Origin: a virus | Lineage: Duplodnaviria; Caudoviricetes | IMG/VR virus record: IMGVR_UViG_3300005805_000082 | Location: 4,826-68,825 of that record | DNA length: 64,000 bases | Direction: 5' to 3' (one strand) | Position numbers and translations under genes: made by a program | Shown: positions 2,273-41,313 of the stretch, in pieces | Numbering within the stretch: position 1 is the stretch's first letter | How the letters are laid out: each line of letters opens with the position of its first letter | The notes under the pieces: generated by a model | What the model saw: the letters and a program-made list of their open reading frames with translations, nothing else | Databases searched by the model: none | Told to the model about the DNA's origin: nothing

Positions 2273-5200
2273 TGATTAGTAAAAAACTATTTACTGGCGG
2301 TATCAACTCTGACGATGCTGATATACTCGTTGACTCCAAGGAGTATCTGAATGCGTTGAATATCCGCTTTGCCACAACTGAAAGTGGTAAGGTAGGTCAG
2401 CTCTCTAATGTAGAGGGAAACACACTTAAGGCTACAACCCTAAATGGCTCGGGGGTTCAGGTTGCCTGGACATTGCCAGCAGGAACCAATACTACTATTG
2501 GCGCTATAGAGGATACACCCAACAAAAGAATCTTTTTCTTCAATAAGAACTCAAACGCAAGCGATGGCATCTATTGCTATGATGCGGACACTAATCTTGT
2601 GTATACCGTATTGCTAGCATCACAGGTTGAGGGTGGCCTTTCATTCAGCAGCAACATACACTCTGTTGCAATCATTGATAACTTATTGTACTGGACTGAT
2701 GGCATCAAGCCACAGCGCAGGATCAATGTAGAGGCTGGCATCAAGATGAACCATCCTTCCTACGCAACAGTAGTACCGCCATACGTTAGTACTGTACTTG
2801 CTCCCATTAAACAGTCTGTGATCAGTCTGATCAGGAATCAGCCATGGGCTCCGCCAACTATTCAGAAGTCAACCGATGCAACCTACCTGAATAACTTCAT
2901 CAAGAATGAGGCGTTTCAGTTTGCATATCGTTTTGTGTACAGGGACTATGAGATCAGTACGTTCTCGCCTCTGTCCGATCTTGCCAACTACAATACATCT
3001 ACAGATGGTTTCAACAGGATCCAAGTAACCATACCTACTACTCAAAAGATAGAGCAGGATGTTATTAGGATTGAGGTGGCGGTAAGGTTTGCGGTCGGGG
3101 GAAAGTATTCTGTCGTCAAGTCATTCTCAGATACCACAGCATTCTCATCCCACAATACGGGTACTGCATTAAACTTTTATTTTTATAATGACGCTGTAGG
3201 TATAGCTGTGGATGATGCAACAGCATTCAAGCAGTATGATTCAATACCGTTAAAATCTCAGACCCTTGAGATTGCCAAGAACAGATTGTTCCTTGGTAAT
3301 AACTATGATGGATACGAGACACCAAAGTCTACCTCTCTTTCTGTAGGTACTGCTAATGGTGGTGGTGCAACACTAACTGGTACATGGTGTAGTTTGGTAT
3401 ATGGAACTGCAGGAAGCCAGGCTACATTGTATCTTCTTGATGTTACGGGTATTGATCCTAACGCTGGATATTACGAGCCAAGCTCACCCCCGAACCCTAG
3501 TGCATTCCCAACAACTGTTGCCTGGAATACGCTGTCGTTTAGAGGCGCAGGCATCTCTAACGTATTATCATATTTGGGTATAACATATCAGGACATTATC
3601 AGCTTTACTGCTGGTCTTGGGTATGCTGATGTTACAGGATACTCTGGTGTTATCACAAGCATTGTAAACAAGAGGGCATTTAAGAGCGACTCTTCATACA
3701 GGCTTGGCGTAGTGTTCTTTGACGAGGCAGGCAGGAAGTGTGGTGTATCAACAAGGGAAGACCTGAAGGTAGTAACTGCTGACAGGGCTTATGCTACAGT
3801 TCAGTATACAACAGATGTTACCTGGGCATTGAGCAATAGCCCATCGACAGTGTTAAGTGAGATACCTGTTTGGGCTAAGTATTACTCAGTAGTAATGACC
3901 AAGTGTCTCAGGACATCGTTCTTCATGCAGCTCAAGGCGGATGGTATTAAGTGGGTTACTAAGAAAGATGACGGTACATATCAGGTAGAGAACTCATACA
4001 GTCAGAGTCACTACGGATTAGCGATAGACGTCAAGTCATTGTATGGTATCGGATATGGTTATTCATATCAAGAAGGAGATCTTGTGAAGCTTTATGGATC
4101 TAGCACACAAAAGACTACATTGTCTATAAGAGATACGTTTGGATCTTACATTGTGTGCGACAACTTCCATGCTACTGATGCCAACTTTCTATACGAAATT
4201 TATTCTCCATATACACAGAGTTTGAATGAGCCGTACTACGAAAGGTATCAGACTTATGTAGTAAATAATGCAGGCACAGATAACAGGGCATACTCTACAA
4301 TAACTGGATCGTTCCAGGGTGACATCACTATCATATCTCGTGGTACTTCTCCAACAGATTATCTAGTAGAGGCAATGTCTCCTGCAGATATCAACTGGAA
4401 GAACTGGAACACTGATGCTGGTAGGGCAAGTATTGTGCTAGACATCAAGCCTGCAGACAAGAAGACTAGCGTATACTTTAGTAACGTAATAGTCTTGGGT
4501 TCTCAGACCAATGGGTTAAGCACATTTGATGTACTTGATCAGACGCAGTTGCCTTATGAGCTATCTTCTATTCAGAAGCTGCAGCTTGTCAGCAAGGTGG
4601 AGTCTGAAGGTACAGTCATGCTAGCCATAGGTGAGCAGGAGACAGCATCTTTATACCTAGGCGAATCTCAGGTGTTTGACAATACAGGATCTTCCTTCCT
4701 TGCCAAGAGCTCGGGGGTAGTCGGTAATGTCAATGTTATGCGTGGTTCTTATGGCACTATCAATCCAGAGAGTGTTGTCAGATACATGGGAAATGTTTAT
4801 TGGTTTGACGCCAACAAAGGATCCGTAGTAAGCTACAGCGTAAACGGTCTGTTCCCGATCTCGGCTAACAAGATGCAGAAGTATTTCAGGAAGGTAGGAC
4901 AGGATGTGCTGAACAGGGGGCTGAAGTTCTATGGTGGTGTTGATCCTTACCATAATGAGATCCTCATGTATGCACCAAGAAAGTCTGCCATCCCTGAGGG
5001 GGCTAGACTGACTGACATGATCCTTGGTTCTAACACCTATAACTTTACAACGGTTGCAGCCGACTCAACTATCGTTGTTGTTGGCTTGGCAACCTATTCA
5101 TACAATGGCGCTCAGGTTGGTCCTAATCAGTCAACTGTTACAGGATCTACAGGTGCGGTTACATACTCATACTCCGGCACAGGGGCTACAGTCTACGGAC

Positions 5201-29793: not shown

Positions 29794-30773
29794 AGTTTCA
29801 CGTTGAATTGTTTACGCCAGGTTATCTTCCCGTTGGGCAGGATCATGGTGGTAGCGCCTTCCTTCTCCATTACTTGCTTGAGCTTGTTCTGGTAGAGCTG
29901 CTTGTCACTTTCGATTGCTTTTATCTCTGCATTCAACTTAGTGTAGCTGTATGCCCACTGCTCATGCTCATCTGATCCCTGCATGGAGATCTCTTCCTCC
30001 CGAGCTTTGTGCTTTTCAGATATGAAGGCATTGAATGCCTGGGAATTGTCGGCATCAGGTTCATATTGCGATGCAACTTGCAGTGCTTGATCAGGATCAA
30101 GACCTTCAGTCTCTTGCTTAGCGGTGAGTACACGCTGCTGAAACTCTACAGCCTCGTGTAGGATTCTATCCTGCAGTTCCTTGTCCTTCTCGAATGTTAC
30201 ACAGCCTAGCTGTCTCCCGTCTTTCAGATAACAGATCTCTGCATAGTTTAACTCCATCACCAACATGTAGTGCTGCACCTGGATGAGGTAGTTCGGGGGG
30301 ATGCCTGCCTCATAAGAGTCAGCAGAGTACCCAGAGATCGTTTTGATCTCTAGGATTCCCCGCTTCTTCCCGTAGTTTGGATGTTTGGTGATAATGCCGT
30401 CTACATTAGCAAACAGCACGGGATATTTTGGATTGATAACTATAGACCTGAGCTTCTTGAAACGCTTGATCTTGTTATCCTTCAAAGTATTTTCAACCCA
30501 TCCCTCATCTGTGCCATCGTAGTACTGCCAACACTTGGCAACGTAATCCTCTAGCTGCTTACCATGGAGCATGGCAGCATTCATAATGGATGGGAGTGAG
30601 CCTAGTCCGAGGCACTGGTAGAACATGTTAATGGGACTCTTGTATTGATTGAGTCCGAGTAGGGTTCCTGAGTCAGATCCCCCGACCATGCCCTTGTTTA
30701 CAAAGGTTTGGCGAAGGCTCTGCCATTCGGCCTCGCTTAGCTTGGCCGTGGGTATCAACGTTAAGTGCTTCAT
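29790..30773 (-). CDS. YqaJ-like (lambda-exo family) exonuclease
   Basis: W..LRQ..VGGSD, HGKQLE, ANVDG..LEIKT, Y.IQVQHYM. Confidence 0.9.
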   Translation of the reverse strand: MKHLTLIPTAKLSEAEWQSLRQTFVNKGMVGGSDSGTLLGLNQYKSPINMFYQCLGLGSLPSIMNAAMLHGKQLEDYVAKCWQYYDGTDEGWVENTLKDNKIKRFKKLRSIVINPKYPVLFANVDGIITKHPNYGKKRGILEIKTISGYSADSYEAGIPPNYLIQVQHYMLVMELNYAEICYLKDGRQLGCVTFEKDKELQDRILHEAVEFQQRVLTAKQETEGLDPDQALQVASQYEPDADNSQAFNAFISEKHKAREEEISMQGSDEHEQWAYSYTKLNAEIKAIESDKQLYQNKLKQVMEKEGATTMILPNGKITWRKQFNVKL

Positions 30774-32542: not shown

Positions 32543-33847
32543 TTATTCTCCTAGGAAATCTTTGTAGTAGTTCTTCACCTCGCTATTGAAGTGCTTTTCC
32601 ACGAACGCCACATACCTCTCAAAGGACATGCTCCTATCACTATGGCCGGAGCAGAACTTGATGTGCCTCTCGGAGACCTTGTGGTAGATCATGGTTGTGA
32701 TGGCGGTCTTCCTGAGCATGTGCGGGTGGATGTGCTTGTACATCTCCGCCACCTCAGTAGTCTCTTCACCATATATCCCAAACTTTTTTACCGTGGCAAT
32801 CTGCTGCATCTCAGGGTAGAGGGAGAATACCGTCTTAATATCCCTGTATAAGTTAGAGTAGTGGCCATTCTCCTTGGTGAAGATCCTTCCATACCTAGTT
32901 AGGTTCTCCCGATAGACTTTCTCTAGAAACTTAGGGATGGGGACGTTGGTGTACTCCCTAGTTTTCCCGTTCATCTTGGAAAGGAACATGGCATCTTTGG
33001 TGATGTGCAGGTCATTCACGGACATGTTCATGGCATCGTTGATCCTCATGGTCGTGATCAGGATGGTGGCAGACACCTCCCAGGCATACCTCAGGTTCTC
33101 ATCTAGGGTGTTGTAGGTCTTCTCCTCAGTCAGGAAATGCTTGACAAAAGTTGGCTCTAGTACTACCACGGGATTCGGATCCGCCTTGTAGCTAATGATC
33201 TTGGGCAGCTGCAGGTAGAGGTGTTCCTTCCAGTAGTTGACCATGATGGCGATGTTGTGGAGGTAGACAGTTCGGGTGCTCATGAACATACCCTCATCAA
33301 TCATGTAGTCATCAAATCCCCTAAAGTATTTATTCCATTTATCAGTAATCTCCCGCTTTCTAGATGCCTCATCCCTAGGATTGATTGCCATCTCCATGAG
33401 ATCTAGGCTTCCAGCTATTTCACTAAATGTAGCAAGCCTTTTTACAGCAGATGCGTAAAGCATCAAGGTTTTTTCAGAATAGCTTCTGTTCCCCTTAGCT
33501 TTAATTTCTCCCCGAACCGCCATCTGAACATACCTCTTCAGCATATCCACCAAATCATAGGAATCCGTGTTGACTGGTTCTTCCTCCCTGACTTCTGGAC
33601 TGTATAGGGATTTGATTTTGGAGACATTGCCTCGATAAACCATGAACAGGTCTGTTAGCTTGACCTTCTGTCGGTCTATCTCATTGTTGAGACTGTCTAC
33701 AAGCGGATCTTTTCCTACAAACCTGCCCTTGACAAACTTTAGATAGGTTGGGACTTTTATGCCCGTAGAAAGTCTCAATGAGATGTCTGTTCCGTGTGTA
33801 ATCCTAGCCTGGATTGTGCTGCCTCTCTGTGTGAAAGAAACTGTCAT
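32543..33847 (-). CDS. int: Tyrosine recombinase/integrase
   Basis: TTMRIND (R), HPHMLRKT (HxxR), SGHS, FERY (Y); Bacteroidota-type N-terminal arm-binding region. Confidence 0.92.
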   Translation of the reverse strand: MTVSFTQRGSTIQARITHGTDISLRLSTGIKVPTYLKFVKGRFVGKDPLVDSLNNEIDRQKVKLTDLFMVYRGNVSKIKSLYSPEVREEEPVNTDSYDLVDMLKRYVQMAVRGEIKAKGNRSYSEKTLMLYASAVKRLATFSEIAGSLDLMEMAINPRDEASRKREITDKWNKYFRGFDDYMIDEGMFMSTRTVYLHNIAIMVNYWKEHLYLQLPKIISYKADPNPVVVLEPTFVKHFLTEEKTYNTLDENLRYAWEVSATILITTMRINDAMNMSVNDLHITKDAMFLSKMNGKTREYTNVPIPKFLEKVYRENLTRYGRIFTKENGHYSNLYRDIKTVFSLYPEMQQIATVKKFGIYGEETTEVAEMYKHIHPHMLRKTAITTMIYHKVSERHIKFCSGHSDRSMSFERYVAFVEKHFNSEVKNYYKDFLGE

Positions 33848-37993: not shown

Positions 37994-38045
37994 GGTTAAG
38001 ACCTCCCGTAGGAGGTTTCGCCTAGTGAAGGCTCATCAGTTAACC
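37994..38045 (-). ncRNA. Type I hammerhead ribozyme
   Basis: GGUUAA-CUGAUGA-GCCU(UCACU)AGGC-GAAA-CCUCC(UACG)GGAGG-UC/UUAACC; complete core and three stems. Confidence 0.93.
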
Positions 38046-38239
38046 TTTGTGGACTCAATTAGGGAATAATACTTGTCATACAGTTCATTGAAAATATCTT
38101 GAGCCTCTTCGGTGTATTTTGCACCGCCATCGCATTCCTCCCAAATAACAATAGAGTCCTGCCATTTTTTTTGCAATTCGTAGTCTGCTAGTTCGGATGC
38201 CAATTCAACTGCGTTGATGGTTAGTTCATGTAAGTTCAT
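38036..38239 (-). CDS. 67-aa acidic early protein flanked by ribozymes
   Basis: MNLHELTINAVELASELADYEL...; ATG 38239 has an ACAC leader (track start 38272 lies in the twister). Confidence 0.7.
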   Translation of the reverse strand: MNLHELTINAVELASELADYELQKKWQDSIVIWEECDGGAKYTEEAQDIFNELYDKYYSLIESTKVN

Positions 38240-38259
38240 TGTGTGTGTGATTTGTGTGT

Positions 38260-38322
38260 AACCTCTCTGCATTCATAGAGACTTGAGACTCTCACCCCTG
38301 GACGGGCGTGGTTGCATTAGTT
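38260..38322 (-). ncRNA. Twister ribozyme (type P1, with P3)
   Basis: P1 AAC/GUU, UAA, P2 UGCA/UGCA, P3 CAC-CCC/GGG-GUG, P4 AGAG/CUCU with loop UCUCAAGU, pseudoknots AC:GU and CUC:GAG, catalytic GA. Confidence 0.88.
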
Positions 38323-38561
38323 TCTCACCCTTTAGCCTCACGACTACGCTGAAAACCTAAGTGATAGATCAAAGTAGGTTGCGAAGGGCGGGTTACTCGC
38401 ACATCCTAGAGGATGCCATGTCGTTTACTGATTGTGCCTACTCTCAAACGATTTACATCGTGTGCTTTTCTTCGTGTGTGGGTTGCCTGAGGGCAGAGCC
38501 GTTTATCACAAAGGTTCAACTAGACAATGTTGCTTTCACTCCGTATTTTCAAAGAACTGCA
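38323..38561 (-). ncRNA. Structured 5' leader RNA of early transcript with boxA-like element
   Basis: Nested stems; GTTCTTTGAAAA at 38546-38557. Confidence 0.55.
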
Positions 38562-39371: not shown

Positions 39372-39804
39372 GGGTAAAGGGATATGCTTACTAATTGGGT
39401 TCAGTGGTCAACATATATATTGACAGAGGTTTGCATAGGTATTGAGGACGAAAGAGGGAAGGGGTGGCTGCTGTGGTTTAACACTCACACTCACGGAACT
39501 GCCCCGTTCCCCCGCATCCGATTGGCTCATAGGATTCCAATTTCCCGTTCATTGTCACATGGCTCAGTTCCCTTTTCGGTTGTCGGAATGATAAGTTGCT
39601 GTGGCTCAAGCGTTTTCGGTTTCTTGCTCATTTATGCTACATAAATTTTGTGTGACAATTATCGATTTTGGAATGGCCATTTTGACCCCCACCCACTCGC
39701 AAATCCGCAGTTCGCATCGGTCAGTCGCCCAGGGTCTTTCAGTATATTACCCCCACTTCTCGCCCACATACAACCCTCACAAATTTCCACGGCTTTCTGT
39801 GAGC

Positions 39805-40044
39805 TCATTGCGGGCTAACTTGGGCATTATCTGGCGCCTCGCCATTAGCTATCTTAATCCAGGATATCCTCTCTTCTAAGCACCTGTAATAGGTCACCAT
39901 GGCGCCATGCTGTATATTGATCATAGATATCTGGACTGTAGATATTTTAGATAATTGATCGCCATCTACTAATTGCTCTAGCTTTTTAATCTTCTTTAGT
40001 AGCTCATCTTTCTCCTTATGCAGTCTGTCGATGTACGTATCCAT
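39805..40044 (-). CDS. Small helical phage protein resembling the crAss001 gp48 family
   Basis: YIDRL..EKDEL..KI.KL...Q..M..Q..AM..Y...LEERI. Confidence 0.65.
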   Translation of the reverse strand: MDTYIDRLHKEKDELLKKIKKLEQLVDGDQLSKISTVQISMINIQHGAMVTYYRCLEERISWIKIANGEAPDNAQVSPQ

Positions 40045-40105
40045 AGTTTATCTCTTTTGGTTTTGGCGTAGTATATCACCGTTATTCTGGCGTTAATTAA
40101 ACTTG

Positions 40106-40248
40106 TAGAACAGGCAGGACTCGAACCTGCATGGTGGCTTTCCGAGAAGCGTCCTCCGATAACTCACGTTACCCCGACCACTATCCACCGCCTTGTTTAG
40201 CTGCGTCTACCACGACCGGGGACACCCCGATCCTTCCGCCACTGTTCT
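40106..40248 (-). ncRNA. Expanded tRNA-like RNA (Leu-type D arm, no canonical anticodon arm)
   Basis: AGAACAG/CTGTTCT acceptor, TGGCGGAA...TGGTAGACGC D arm with inserted hairpin, GCAGG-TTCGAGT-CCTGC T arm, A73; 143 nt. Confidence 0.7.
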
Positions 40249-40330
40249 ATGTGCCTGTCTTTCCAAGCTGTCAGATAAGTTCTCCAGCTTAATGGACTGG
40301 ATGCCATGTAGGGAGATTATCATTTCTCCG

Positions 40331-40414
40331 CAGAACAGAAGGGAGTCGAACCCTTGTAAGTAGTGCACTACCTATCTACATCGTAGACTGCGGACCACTT
40401 TCCGCAACTGTTCT
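40331..40414 (-). ncRNA. tRNA-like RNA with long variable arm and closed anticodon hairpin
   Basis: AGAACAG/CTGTTCT acceptor, GCGGA/TCCGC D stem, GTCTAC-GAT-GTAGAT, AGGTAG-TGCA-CTACTT, AAGGG-TTCGACT-CCCTT, G73; 84 nt. Confidence 0.7.
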
Positions 40415-40591
40415 ATGTCCCCACTTTCGTGGGCACTTCTGGATTTGCTCCTGAGTCTGCAAACTCACCTGTATAAGACCTACAAATGGGAGTCATACAG
40501 CGAAGATAAACGGCCAACTCTCTAAAATATTTTGTTATCATCAAATGTTCATAAGTTTCAAATCATAATAGATAGCTTCCTAAATTCGCCA

Positions 40592-40805
40592 TCCTGGTTC
40601 CACCTGCTAGGGTCGGGGTCCAGTCAAAACCCCAAGCTAGGTTTATCCGAGGACGGAATGTTTAAGCTGATAGCAGGAGCGACAGTGATCCACTCACTGA
40701 CCGAAAGGTAGCTGCGGTGACGGAGTACGAGGAACTCAGGAGCAGTTTAATCGAACAGGGCTTTCCTTTTAAGCGAAGCTGTGTTCTGAAATACTTCAGA
40801 ATCTT
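40592..40805 (+). ncRNA. Structured 5' leader RNA of late transcript
   Basis: Follows TAAATTCG (40581-40588); nested stems TCCTG.GTTCC/GGAAC.CAGGA, CCTGCTA/TAGCAGG, CAGTGA/TCACTG, ACC-GAAA-GGT. Confidence 0.55.
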
Positions 40806-41313
40806 GGAGCAGTTTAATCCTAGAAAGTTTAGAAGAGAGTCACACCAAGACTCAGACCTCATATGCAGGTTGGAAGCCATCAGGCTATTCTACCATCACC
40901 CCACCTACAAAGCTGTACTAGCAGAAGACTACTACCCTGAAGATGAAGAGGTGCAGTACAAAGCTGACATCGCCCTGGTCAATAGGGTGACTGGCGCACA
41001 CGAACACTGCCTGGAGGTGGAGATGAAACGGTCGTGGGTCGATGAGTTCCCCTACAAGGACATTCAGTTCCTGCCCAGGAAGAAGGAGAAGTGGGACGAC
41101 CCCAAGTTCACCTTTGGCAAGCCTACCCACTGGGTCCTGTTCAATCGGGATGCCTCCCAGCACCTTGTGATTTTTGATAGTGTAATTCGGAATATTTCCG
41201 ATGTACGCATGGTAAGTTGCCAGGTTCGGGGTCTTGAGGAGCTCTATACCATCCCTACCAAGTTTGCCTATCTCAACTACCTTAATGAAAAAACATACGA
41301 AGATTTACCTTGA
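40717..41313 (+). CDS. PD-(D/E)xK-like nuclease; true start probably downstream of 40717
   Basis: ADIAL...LEVEMK; the N-terminal ~30 codons overlap a structured RNA. Confidence 0.6.
   Translation: MTEYEELRSSLIEQGFPFKRSCVLKYFRILEQFNPRKFRRESHQDSDLICRLEAIRLFYHHPTYKAVLAEDYYPEDEEVQYKADIALVNRVTGAHEHCLEVEMKRSWVDEFPYKDIQFLPRKKEKWDDPKFTFGKPTHWVLFNRDASQHLVIFDSVIRNISDVRMVSCQVRGLEELYTIPTKFAYLNYLNEKTYEDLP

Follow-up and report, generated by a model that had tools for sequence, protein, structure and literature searches.

What would a phage do with a gene whose product has the body of a tRNA and, where the anticodon loop should be, a sealed hairpin? The question is raised by an 84-nt element, here called W1, in a 64,000-nt stretch of viral DNA (the window) that forms part of a 68.8-kb IMG/VR virus record. 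W1 is a real tRNA-like element, and it is non-decoding. Set among its relatives, it is the minimal, cargo-free member (an "empty chassis") of a phage family of anticodon-less RNAs apparently derived from class II tRNAs, and its job is most likely RNA processing or tRNA mimicry.

By its genes, the phage is crAss-like. The window encodes a crAss001_48-related protein, a muzzle-protein C-terminal domain and an SU10-type capsid protein, in addition to a large terminase, a portal protein and a 3101-aa ORF. A leftward module carries genes for a primase-helicase, a YqaJ exonuclease, a Rad52-like annealase, a dNMP kinase, a C5-methylase, a ParB-like protein and an integrase. The coordinates of W1, its parts and the features around it are collected in Table 1.

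Table 1. Positions in the window of W1, its structural parts and neighbouring features
Feature	Position	Strand	Basis or remark
Tyrosine integrase	32543-33847		6.5 kb from W1
Acceptor/T-arm minihelix, 7 + 6 bp, UUCGAGU loop	37281..37239	-	between a stop codon and the next ATG
Hammerhead-like motif	37995-38079	-	24.5 bits
Twister-P1-like motif	38259-38323	-	47.5 bits, E = 1e-8, below gathering score 67.2
W2, 143-nt W1 paralogue, second tRNA-like gene	40106..40248	-	82 nt downstream of W1
Spacer between W1 and W2, 82 nt	40249..40330	-	ends in W2 leader hairpin and ACAU
W2 leader hairpin GCUUG-GAAAGA-CAGGC	40268-40253	-	then ACAU
W1, 84-nt tRNA-shaped RNA gene	40331..40414	- (5' end 40414)	sequence, MFE cloverleaf, Rfam tRNA score, chance estimate
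W1 acceptor AGAACAG/CUGUUCU, 7 bp	40414-40408 / 40338-40332	-	sequence
W1 U8 U9	40407-40406	-	sequence
W1 D arm GCGG-AAAGUGGU-CCGC	40405-40390	-	4-bp stem with GG in loop, then A26
W1 sealed anticodon-arm analogue GUCUAC-GAU-GUAGAU	40388-40374	-	6-bp hairpin; GAU triloop 40382-40380
W1 variable arm AGGUAG-UGCA-CUACUU	40373-40358	-	6-bp stem, 4-nt loop, then AC
W1 T arm AAGGG-UUCGACU-CCCUU	40355-40339	-	canonical loop
W1 G73	40331	-	sequence
W1 leader hairpin CCCAC-GAAA-GUGGG	40420..40433	-	then GACAU, then W1 +1
-7-like promoter box TATCTTCG	40501..40508	-	conserved block in relatives; leftward transcription

The preliminary description of this locus had proposed an 84-nt tRNA-like RNA with a closed GAU triloop instead of an anticodon loop, and its exact position was borne out, on the minus strand. 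It had also held that all arms, including a 6-bp variable arm, pair well, and here too the fold agrees: W1 forms 28 pairs, all of them standard and two of them G-U, and the cloverleaf is the unconstrained RNAfold MFE with one added U9-A26 pair on the D stem (-30.8 kcal/mol; z = -2.95, with 1 of 200 shuffles as good). Compared with an alternative in which a 7-nt loop tops a 4-bp stem, the sealed triloop is more stable by 3.8 kcal/mol; the inner pairs of the sealed arm have probabilities of at least 0.97. Both sequence and fold bear out the earlier statement that there is neither a U33 nor a 7-nt loop: the arm is 15 nt long instead of the usual 17 nt, has no 5-bp anticodon stem, and would carry C33, not U33, if it were opened to a 7-nt loop. 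As W1 has no accessible anticodon, no U33 and no 7-nt loop, it cannot be a normal decoder. The rest of the molecule has the features by which tRNAs are recognised, namely a 7-bp acceptor, a D arm with G18 and G19 and a T loop matching UUCRANY. The D arm, with its 4-bp stem and 8-nt loop, is class I-like and not of the class II type, and no CCA is encoded after G73.

Standard tRNA finders deal poorly with this element. ARAGORN, run on the window, did not call W1 as a tRNA and found no tmRNA, and the Rfam tRNA model (RF00005) missed it both in a whole-window search at the gathering score and in a 1.7-kb search at E <= 10. Presented alone as a 96-nt stretch, W1 scored 30.3 bits against a gathering score of 29, with an alignment that covers the acceptor, D and T arms and flags the anticodon stem as non-canonical. 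In order to estimate how often such a unit would arise by chance, 200 Markov-simulated 64-kb windows were searched for a 7-bp acceptor together with a T arm bearing the T-loop motif within 100 nt. Such units occurred 0.105 times per simulated window, falling to 0.02 when a 4-bp D stem was also demanded, and the real 64-kb window contains exactly one, W1. Two exact scans of IMG/VR with 21-24-mers yielded no W1 orthologue, and blastn of W1 against 50,697 phage records returned chance matches at the level of the T arm only. W1 has no orthologue in the collections searched, and this singleton status limits what can be concluded from W1 alone. Two other identities for the element were considered and rejected: a primer-binding site, as the phage record holds no second site complementary to W1, and a Y-RNA-like RNA, for which the Rfam matches were fragmentary only.

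W1 lies in a hypervariable cargo island of ~700 bp (about 39800-40495), which holds both W1 and the second tRNA-like gene, W2, between two conserved blocks. The right border block (40496-40691) is non-coding, is 74-90% identical in relatives over a core of ~190 nt, and comprises divergent promoters of the Bacteroidota type and, ahead of the late genes, a structured leader; its outer stem is CCTGCTA/TAGCAGG, and one inner hairpin is compensated in relatives (CCG-UCCU-CGG vs CUCC-CCUU-GGAG). On the left, a conserved motif near 39629-39799 on the minus strand, which forms a small hairpin, marks the distal edge of the island in all relatives; it reads UAGAAUCGCCUGUAAUGA.CUCACAG in the relatives and has diverged to GCAAUGAGCUCACAG near 39800 in the window.

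W1 is the first structured gene after the early leftward promoter, and both W1 and W2 precede the first ORF. The promoter's -7-like box reads TATCTTTG or TACATTTG in the relatives, and all three versions fit the Bacteroidota -7 consensus, TAnnTTTG. The promoter was called because of this consensus and because the box is conserved in relatives; a sigma-70 promoter scan of 39700-40900 found nothing. Transcription is predicted to start ~75-85 nt upstream of W1.

Comparison of the island with those of ten relatives (L003, L004, L005, L006, L015, L027 and L032-L035) revealed one tRNA-like unit, a unit with a small ORF, other non-coding sequence, or nothing at all at this site. The phages L027 and L034 are identical as far as the leader hairpin and then carry different cargo. 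The close relatives L003, L006 and L015 have no tRNA-like unit at the island site, which points to an accessory role for the unit.

W2 shows this exchange of content within a single gene. Its acceptor stem is identical to that of W1, and it has a T arm and A73. Its D arm is of the Leu type with a hairpin inserted in the D loop, and its anticodon and variable arms are replaced by a branched domain of ~70 nt. When W2 is aligned with the unit of L035, the two ends are 98% and 97% identical and the 69-nt middle is unrelated. The backbones of the two phages are 68-82% identical, below the identity of the W2 ends.

To place W1 and W2 among other such RNAs, 19 distinct units were gathered from viral and metagenomic contigs by means of the neighbouring protein, the conserved promoter block and the leader hairpin; one of these (L042) proved to be a genuine tRNA-Trp. 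Every unit begins with A1, G2-C71 is invariant, and A1-U72 is found in 15 of 18 units. Three main acceptor types occur (AGAACAG, AGUCAGG and AGCAAGG), each with a fully complementary 3' strand. The AGAACAG/CUGUUCU acceptor is common to W1, W2, L027, L032 and L035, copies within one genome have the same acceptor, and acceptor pairs 3-6 are compensated across the family. Most members have U8 G9, a D arm of the form UGGCGGAA..GGUAGACGC, a UUCGAAU T loop and A73 (the last in 13 of the 19). Between the D and T arms, the members have from 15 nt to more than 100 nt of sequence that defies alignment, the anticodon/variable region having been exchanged wholesale among members (73-161 nt). W1 follows the same plan, in that a non-anticodon hairpin takes the place of the anticodon arm and the T arm is kept. 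It is nevertheless an outlier of the family, with the D arm UUGCGGAAAGUGGUCCGC and G73 as against the Leu-type UGGCGGAA..GGUAGACGC and A73. That A73 occurs in 13 of 19 units and the UGGCGGAA..GGUAGACGC D arm in most of them points to descent of the family from class II genes of the tRNA-Leu type.

Covariation was assessed in the acceptor and T stems, on which 18 members were aligned after exclusion of the L042 unit, a genuine tRNA-Trp. In these stems, 97.2% of cells are paired, compared to 78.5% in shuffles, and 7 of the 12 pairs vary on both sides. The covariation score of 0.518 was reached by none of 500 shuffles (0.161 when shuffled), and slid controls did not exceed 0.08. Together with the like ends and unrelated middles of W2 and the L035 unit, this covariation of the acceptor and T stems provides evidence that selection acts on the tRNA body.

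The family units were found solely in phage and metagenome contigs among the collections searched. A leader-plus-acceptor pattern gave 26 matches in 185,579 bacterial and archaeal species genomes, none of them with a T arm or an acceptor partner, and a sample of 401 Bacteroidota genomes contained no T arm with CTGTTCT after it. As the species genomes yielded chance matches only and the Bacteroidota sample none, the unit looks phage-borne and not like a copy of an attachment site.

A small hairpin lies just 5' of both W1 and W2, its loop being GAAA or GAAAGA, and AYAU follows it. The family leader hairpin has the consensus GCYNG-GAAAGA-CNRGC, lies 3-4 nt upstream of +1 and has compensated stems; the leader of W1 (fold -12.7 kcal/mol, z = -5.15) is unlike this consensus in sequence and like it in shape, and may be a variant of it. 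In L042 (5858-5947, plus strand), the leader hairpin GCCGG-GAAAGA-CCGGC stands directly 5' of the genuine tRNA-Trp(cca), and leader stems of this type covary, with U-A, G-U, G-C and C-G at one position. The presence of this hairpin before a genuine tRNA gene suggests that it is a general tRNA-gene module in these phages. Three members lie inside an array of about 20 genuine tRNA genes in L021 (7953-8074, 8272-8398 and 9319-9422, minus strand). These three have one acceptor (AGUCAGG), differing inserts and CAA-type 3' trailers like those of the neighbouring genuine tRNAs. The shared leader in L042 and the shared trailers in L021 fit a maturation route in common with genuine tRNAs.

Some individual members have features of their own. 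In one L021 member, a 29-nt hairpin directly precedes a CUUAAAA loop and 3' stem that are otherwise intact. The idea that inserts beside this CUUAAAA motif in relatives are introns was discarded, as they range from 3 to 110 nt, sit at inconsistent positions and have no conserved boundaries. The unit of L004 can be folded with a 6-7-bp stem and a 5-nt loop or, alternatively, with 5 bp and a 7-nt loop with U33. ARAGORN labels this unit (2545-2617, minus strand) as tRNA-Ala(cgc) and that of L032 (730-821, minus strand) as tRNA-Gly(ccc), and both labels are mistaken.

The early leftward operon carries other motifs associated with RNA processing besides W1 and W2, including the twister-P1-like and hammerhead-like motifs and the bare minihelix listed in Table 1, and it also contains a tRNA-Trp followed by a terminator-like hairpin. 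The minihelix is also conserved in L037, where its T stem shows compensation; it probably serves as a signal for RNase P/Z processing. Hammerhead III-like motifs lie in the equivalent operon of several relatives (L006 1302-1355, L003 526-581, L005 959-1018 and L038 282-334).

Our preferred explanation, to which we give roughly even chances, is that host tRNA-processing enzymes excise W1 and so set ends within the early transcript, and that the freed 84-nt RNA persists as a tRNA mimic. The acceptor/T-arm stack and the D-loop/T-loop elbow would let the host's tRNA maturation enzymes accept W1 as a substrate. The RNase P cut would fall between U-1 (40415) and A+1 (40414), and an RNase Z-type enzyme would cut after G73 (40331), with CCA addition to follow; a cut of this type is proposed because CCA is not encoded. 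The cuts would act as punctuation in the early polycistronic RNA, and the product would be a tRNA mimic of 84 nt, compact and stable. With its anticodon loop sealed, W1 cannot decode, and whatever it does must be done by the tRNA body.

Several observations agree with this explanation. The parts conserved in the family, the 12-bp acceptor/T stack and the D/T elbow, are those read by RNase P, RNase Z and the CCA-adding enzyme, and the dispensable part is the one that decoding requires. RNase P processes non-tRNA phage and cellular RNAs (PMC11143913). The operon contains RNA-cutting motifs, including a bare minihelix, and in about 9 of the 18 members an ORF with an A-rich leader begins 14-61 nt 3' of the unit. 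The preliminary description had viewed the element in isolation, and while its reading of a tRNA-like, non-decoding RNA with a long variable arm stands, the surroundings lead elsewhere: the second copy, the phage family and the RNA-processing motifs in the operon favour a processing or tRNA-body role over specific aminoacylation.

Punctuation is arguably not the whole story, however. Two tandem units before the first ORF exceed its needs, and the elbow and D arm have been kept though a minihelix suffices for RNase P, which hints at a further partner. The hypervariable setting would suit a host-interaction role too.

These same observations bring in a trans-acting decoy, which we regard as possible but unlikely. 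Here the released RNA would occupy a host protein that binds the tRNA body, with a tRNA-targeting defence nuclease, a nucleotidyltransferase, or a modification or processing enzyme as proposed targets; processing would be its biogenesis route only, and the exchangeable middle would tune specificity in the relatives. The location of the ~700-bp hypervariable island at the very start of the early operon, between conserved blocks, is what such a function would lead one to expect, as are the cassette-like swapping of the RNA middle in otherwise similar phages, the retained elbow and the restriction of the unit to phage and metagenome contigs. No recognisable defence or anti-defence gene adjoins W1, however, and W1 itself is essentially without cargo.

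A bolder version of a body-only role is that W1 and its relatives form a distinct class of CCA-tailed, possibly aminoacylated tRNA bodies that never decode, are the first made in infection, and neutralise or hijack a host tRNA-binding factor. We hold this to be doubtful. If it were true, the target might be a tRNA-directed defence enzyme or a synthetase, for example, and the cargo-free W1 would show that the tRNA body alone is the active part.

Aminoacylation as such can be considered separately. W1 would be charged with Ser and its A73 relatives with Leu, and the charged RNA would serve as an amino-acid donor away from the ribosome, or would soak up a synthetase or EF-Tu, an explanation that appears quite doubtful. 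The preliminary description had named G73 and a long variable arm as SerRS identity features and noted that SerRS ignores the anticodon, in agreement with the published account in which serine identity does not depend on the anticodon and is set by the variable arm, G73 and acceptor pairs (PMC9976931). In addition to G73 and its 6-bp variable arm, W1 has G2-C71, and it is C2-G71 that blocks SerRS (PMC9976931). G73 shifts Leu identity towards Ser, and E. coli tRNA-Leu can lose both its anticodon arm and its variable arm and still accept leucine, provided that A73 and the D/T tertiary pairs remain (PMC9976931). The features of W1 are compatible with Ser charging and those of the relatives with Leu charging, the prevalence of A73 and of the Leu-type D arm pointing the same way, as does the CCA encoded by L004, the sole member to do so. 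Against this, the class I-like D arm of W1 lacks the class II geometry by which the variable arm is oriented, A1-U72 is an uncommon pair, and the degenerate T loops of some members (GGCAGAU in L005, and 8-nt loops) would harm charging. A scan of 30 window proteins found no tRNA-metabolism enzyme, and Fem, L/F-transferase, CDPS, MprF and synthetases, that is, the enzymes that would use or make an aminoacyl-tRNA, were absent among the window proteins scanned.

It is very doubtful that W1 is a decaying duplicate of a phage tRNA gene without a function of its own. Such a gene could well be a singleton without orthologues, relatives could be without the unit, and its D arm, discriminator and leader could depart from the family consensus, all as seen here. 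All five helices of W1 are perfectly paired, however, and random decay would not be expected to shorten the arm by two bases and leave a perfect 6-bp hairpin. W1 shares its exact acceptor with W2 and three other phages, and compensatory changes are seen in the family. The earlier argument that clean pairing speaks against simple decay is upheld by these helices and by the family-wide covariation of the acceptor and T stems; W1 looks neither like a chance product nor like decay.

It is extremely improbable that W1 is an ordinary decoding tRNA-Ile. In that form, the A-U and C-G inner pairs would be open, leaving a 4-bp stem and an ACGAUGU loop whose positions 34-36 read GAU; against it stand the 3.8 kcal/mol cost, the closed inner pairs, C33, the 4-bp stem, the missing ARAGORN call and the anticodon stem flagged by Rfam. 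Integrases often target tRNA genes and the window encodes a tyrosine integrase, but it is hardly credible either that this enzyme uses W1 as an attP-type copy of a tRNA gene of the host. W1 is a complete cloverleaf and not a 3' fragment, and it lies 6.5 kb from the integrase gene; a T arm with CTGTTCT after it occurs in 0 of 401 Bacteroidota genomes, and the leader-plus-acceptor pattern has chance matches only in the species genomes.

The tRNA body is under selection, the anticodon region is free to change, and even the cargo-free version has been kept perfectly paired. This narrows the possible functions to those of the body only, namely RNase P/Z punctuation, CCA addition or charging, and mimicry towards tRNA-binding proteins, and W1 offers a compact 84-nt test object for such assays. 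There is also a consequence for annotation, in that standard tRNA finders miss or mislabel such genes. Full-text literature searches returned no description of anticodon-less tRNA-like RNAs in crAss-like phages, and tRNA-like candidates receive only general mention in a catalogue of structured viral RNAs from 2023 (PMC10690425).

Among known systems, tmRNA is like W1 in being non-decoding and in having an acceptor/T-arm mimic that is processed by RNase P. W1 differs in having A3-U70 and not the alanine-identity pair G3-U70, no mRNA-like segment, no pseudoknots, a true D stem and a length of 84 nt. The Rfam tmRNA model matched only the 18-nt T-arm/acceptor end (13.7 bits), and a tmRNA identity was rejected on this fragmentary match, the lack of G3-U70 and the absence of an ARAGORN tmRNA call. 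The tRNA-like processing modules, such as the mascRNA of MALAT1, the tRNA punctuation of mitochondrial and some bacterial operons and the C4 RNA of P1/P7, are comparable in that a tRNA-shaped fold within a longer transcript would recruit RNase P/Z (PMC11143913). They are unrelated to W1 in sequence and host, the cleavage of W1 being a proposal, and the Rfam alignment of mascRNA to W1 is weak and partial (15.1 bits). Class II tRNAs (Leu, Ser; RF00005) have the acceptor, D, variable and T arms in common with W1, whose relatives keep a tRNA-Leu D-arm sequence. W1 departs from them in its 15-nt arm without a 7-nt loop or U33, in A1-U72 and in receiving no ARAGORN call.

Phage "tRNA-like stable RNAs", represented by T4 species 1 and T5 RNA1, have been known since the 1970s, and to our knowledge they have never been explained. 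Judged by architecture, these two appear to be the closest known RNAs to W1. T4 species 1 RNA (rnaC, 139 nt) is a stable small RNA encoded with tRNA genes in the T4 tRNA cluster, with a tRNA-type T arm, a terminal stem and long hairpins in the middle; unlike W1, it lacks a recognisable D arm, pairs imperfectly in its 5'/3' stem and is much larger, and it has no detectable sequence relation to W1. T5 RNA1 (GenBank AY543070, misc_RNA 30501-30644) is annotated as "tRNA-like stable RNA with unknown functions" and sits among phage tRNA genes. Like the W1 family, it combines an acceptor-like stem and a canonical T arm with a Leu-type D arm (CCGGAAUUGGUAGACGG); its variable-arm hairpin stands apart, and an extended branched hairpin takes the place of the anticodon arm. 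The T arm and 3' acceptor strand resemble those of W1; the alignment covers the 3' end only, and any homology is putative. T5 RNA1 belongs to another type of phage in another host phylum, no leader hairpin is seen beside it, and it measures 144 nt with a large insert, in contrast to the 84 nt of W1 with its sealed 6-bp/3-nt hairpin and no cargo. By this comparison, the class of tRNA-like stable RNAs would extend to the crAss-like phages of Bacteroidota, and within this known but unexplained kind of phage RNA, W1 stands out as a cargo-free, Ser-flavoured minimal form.
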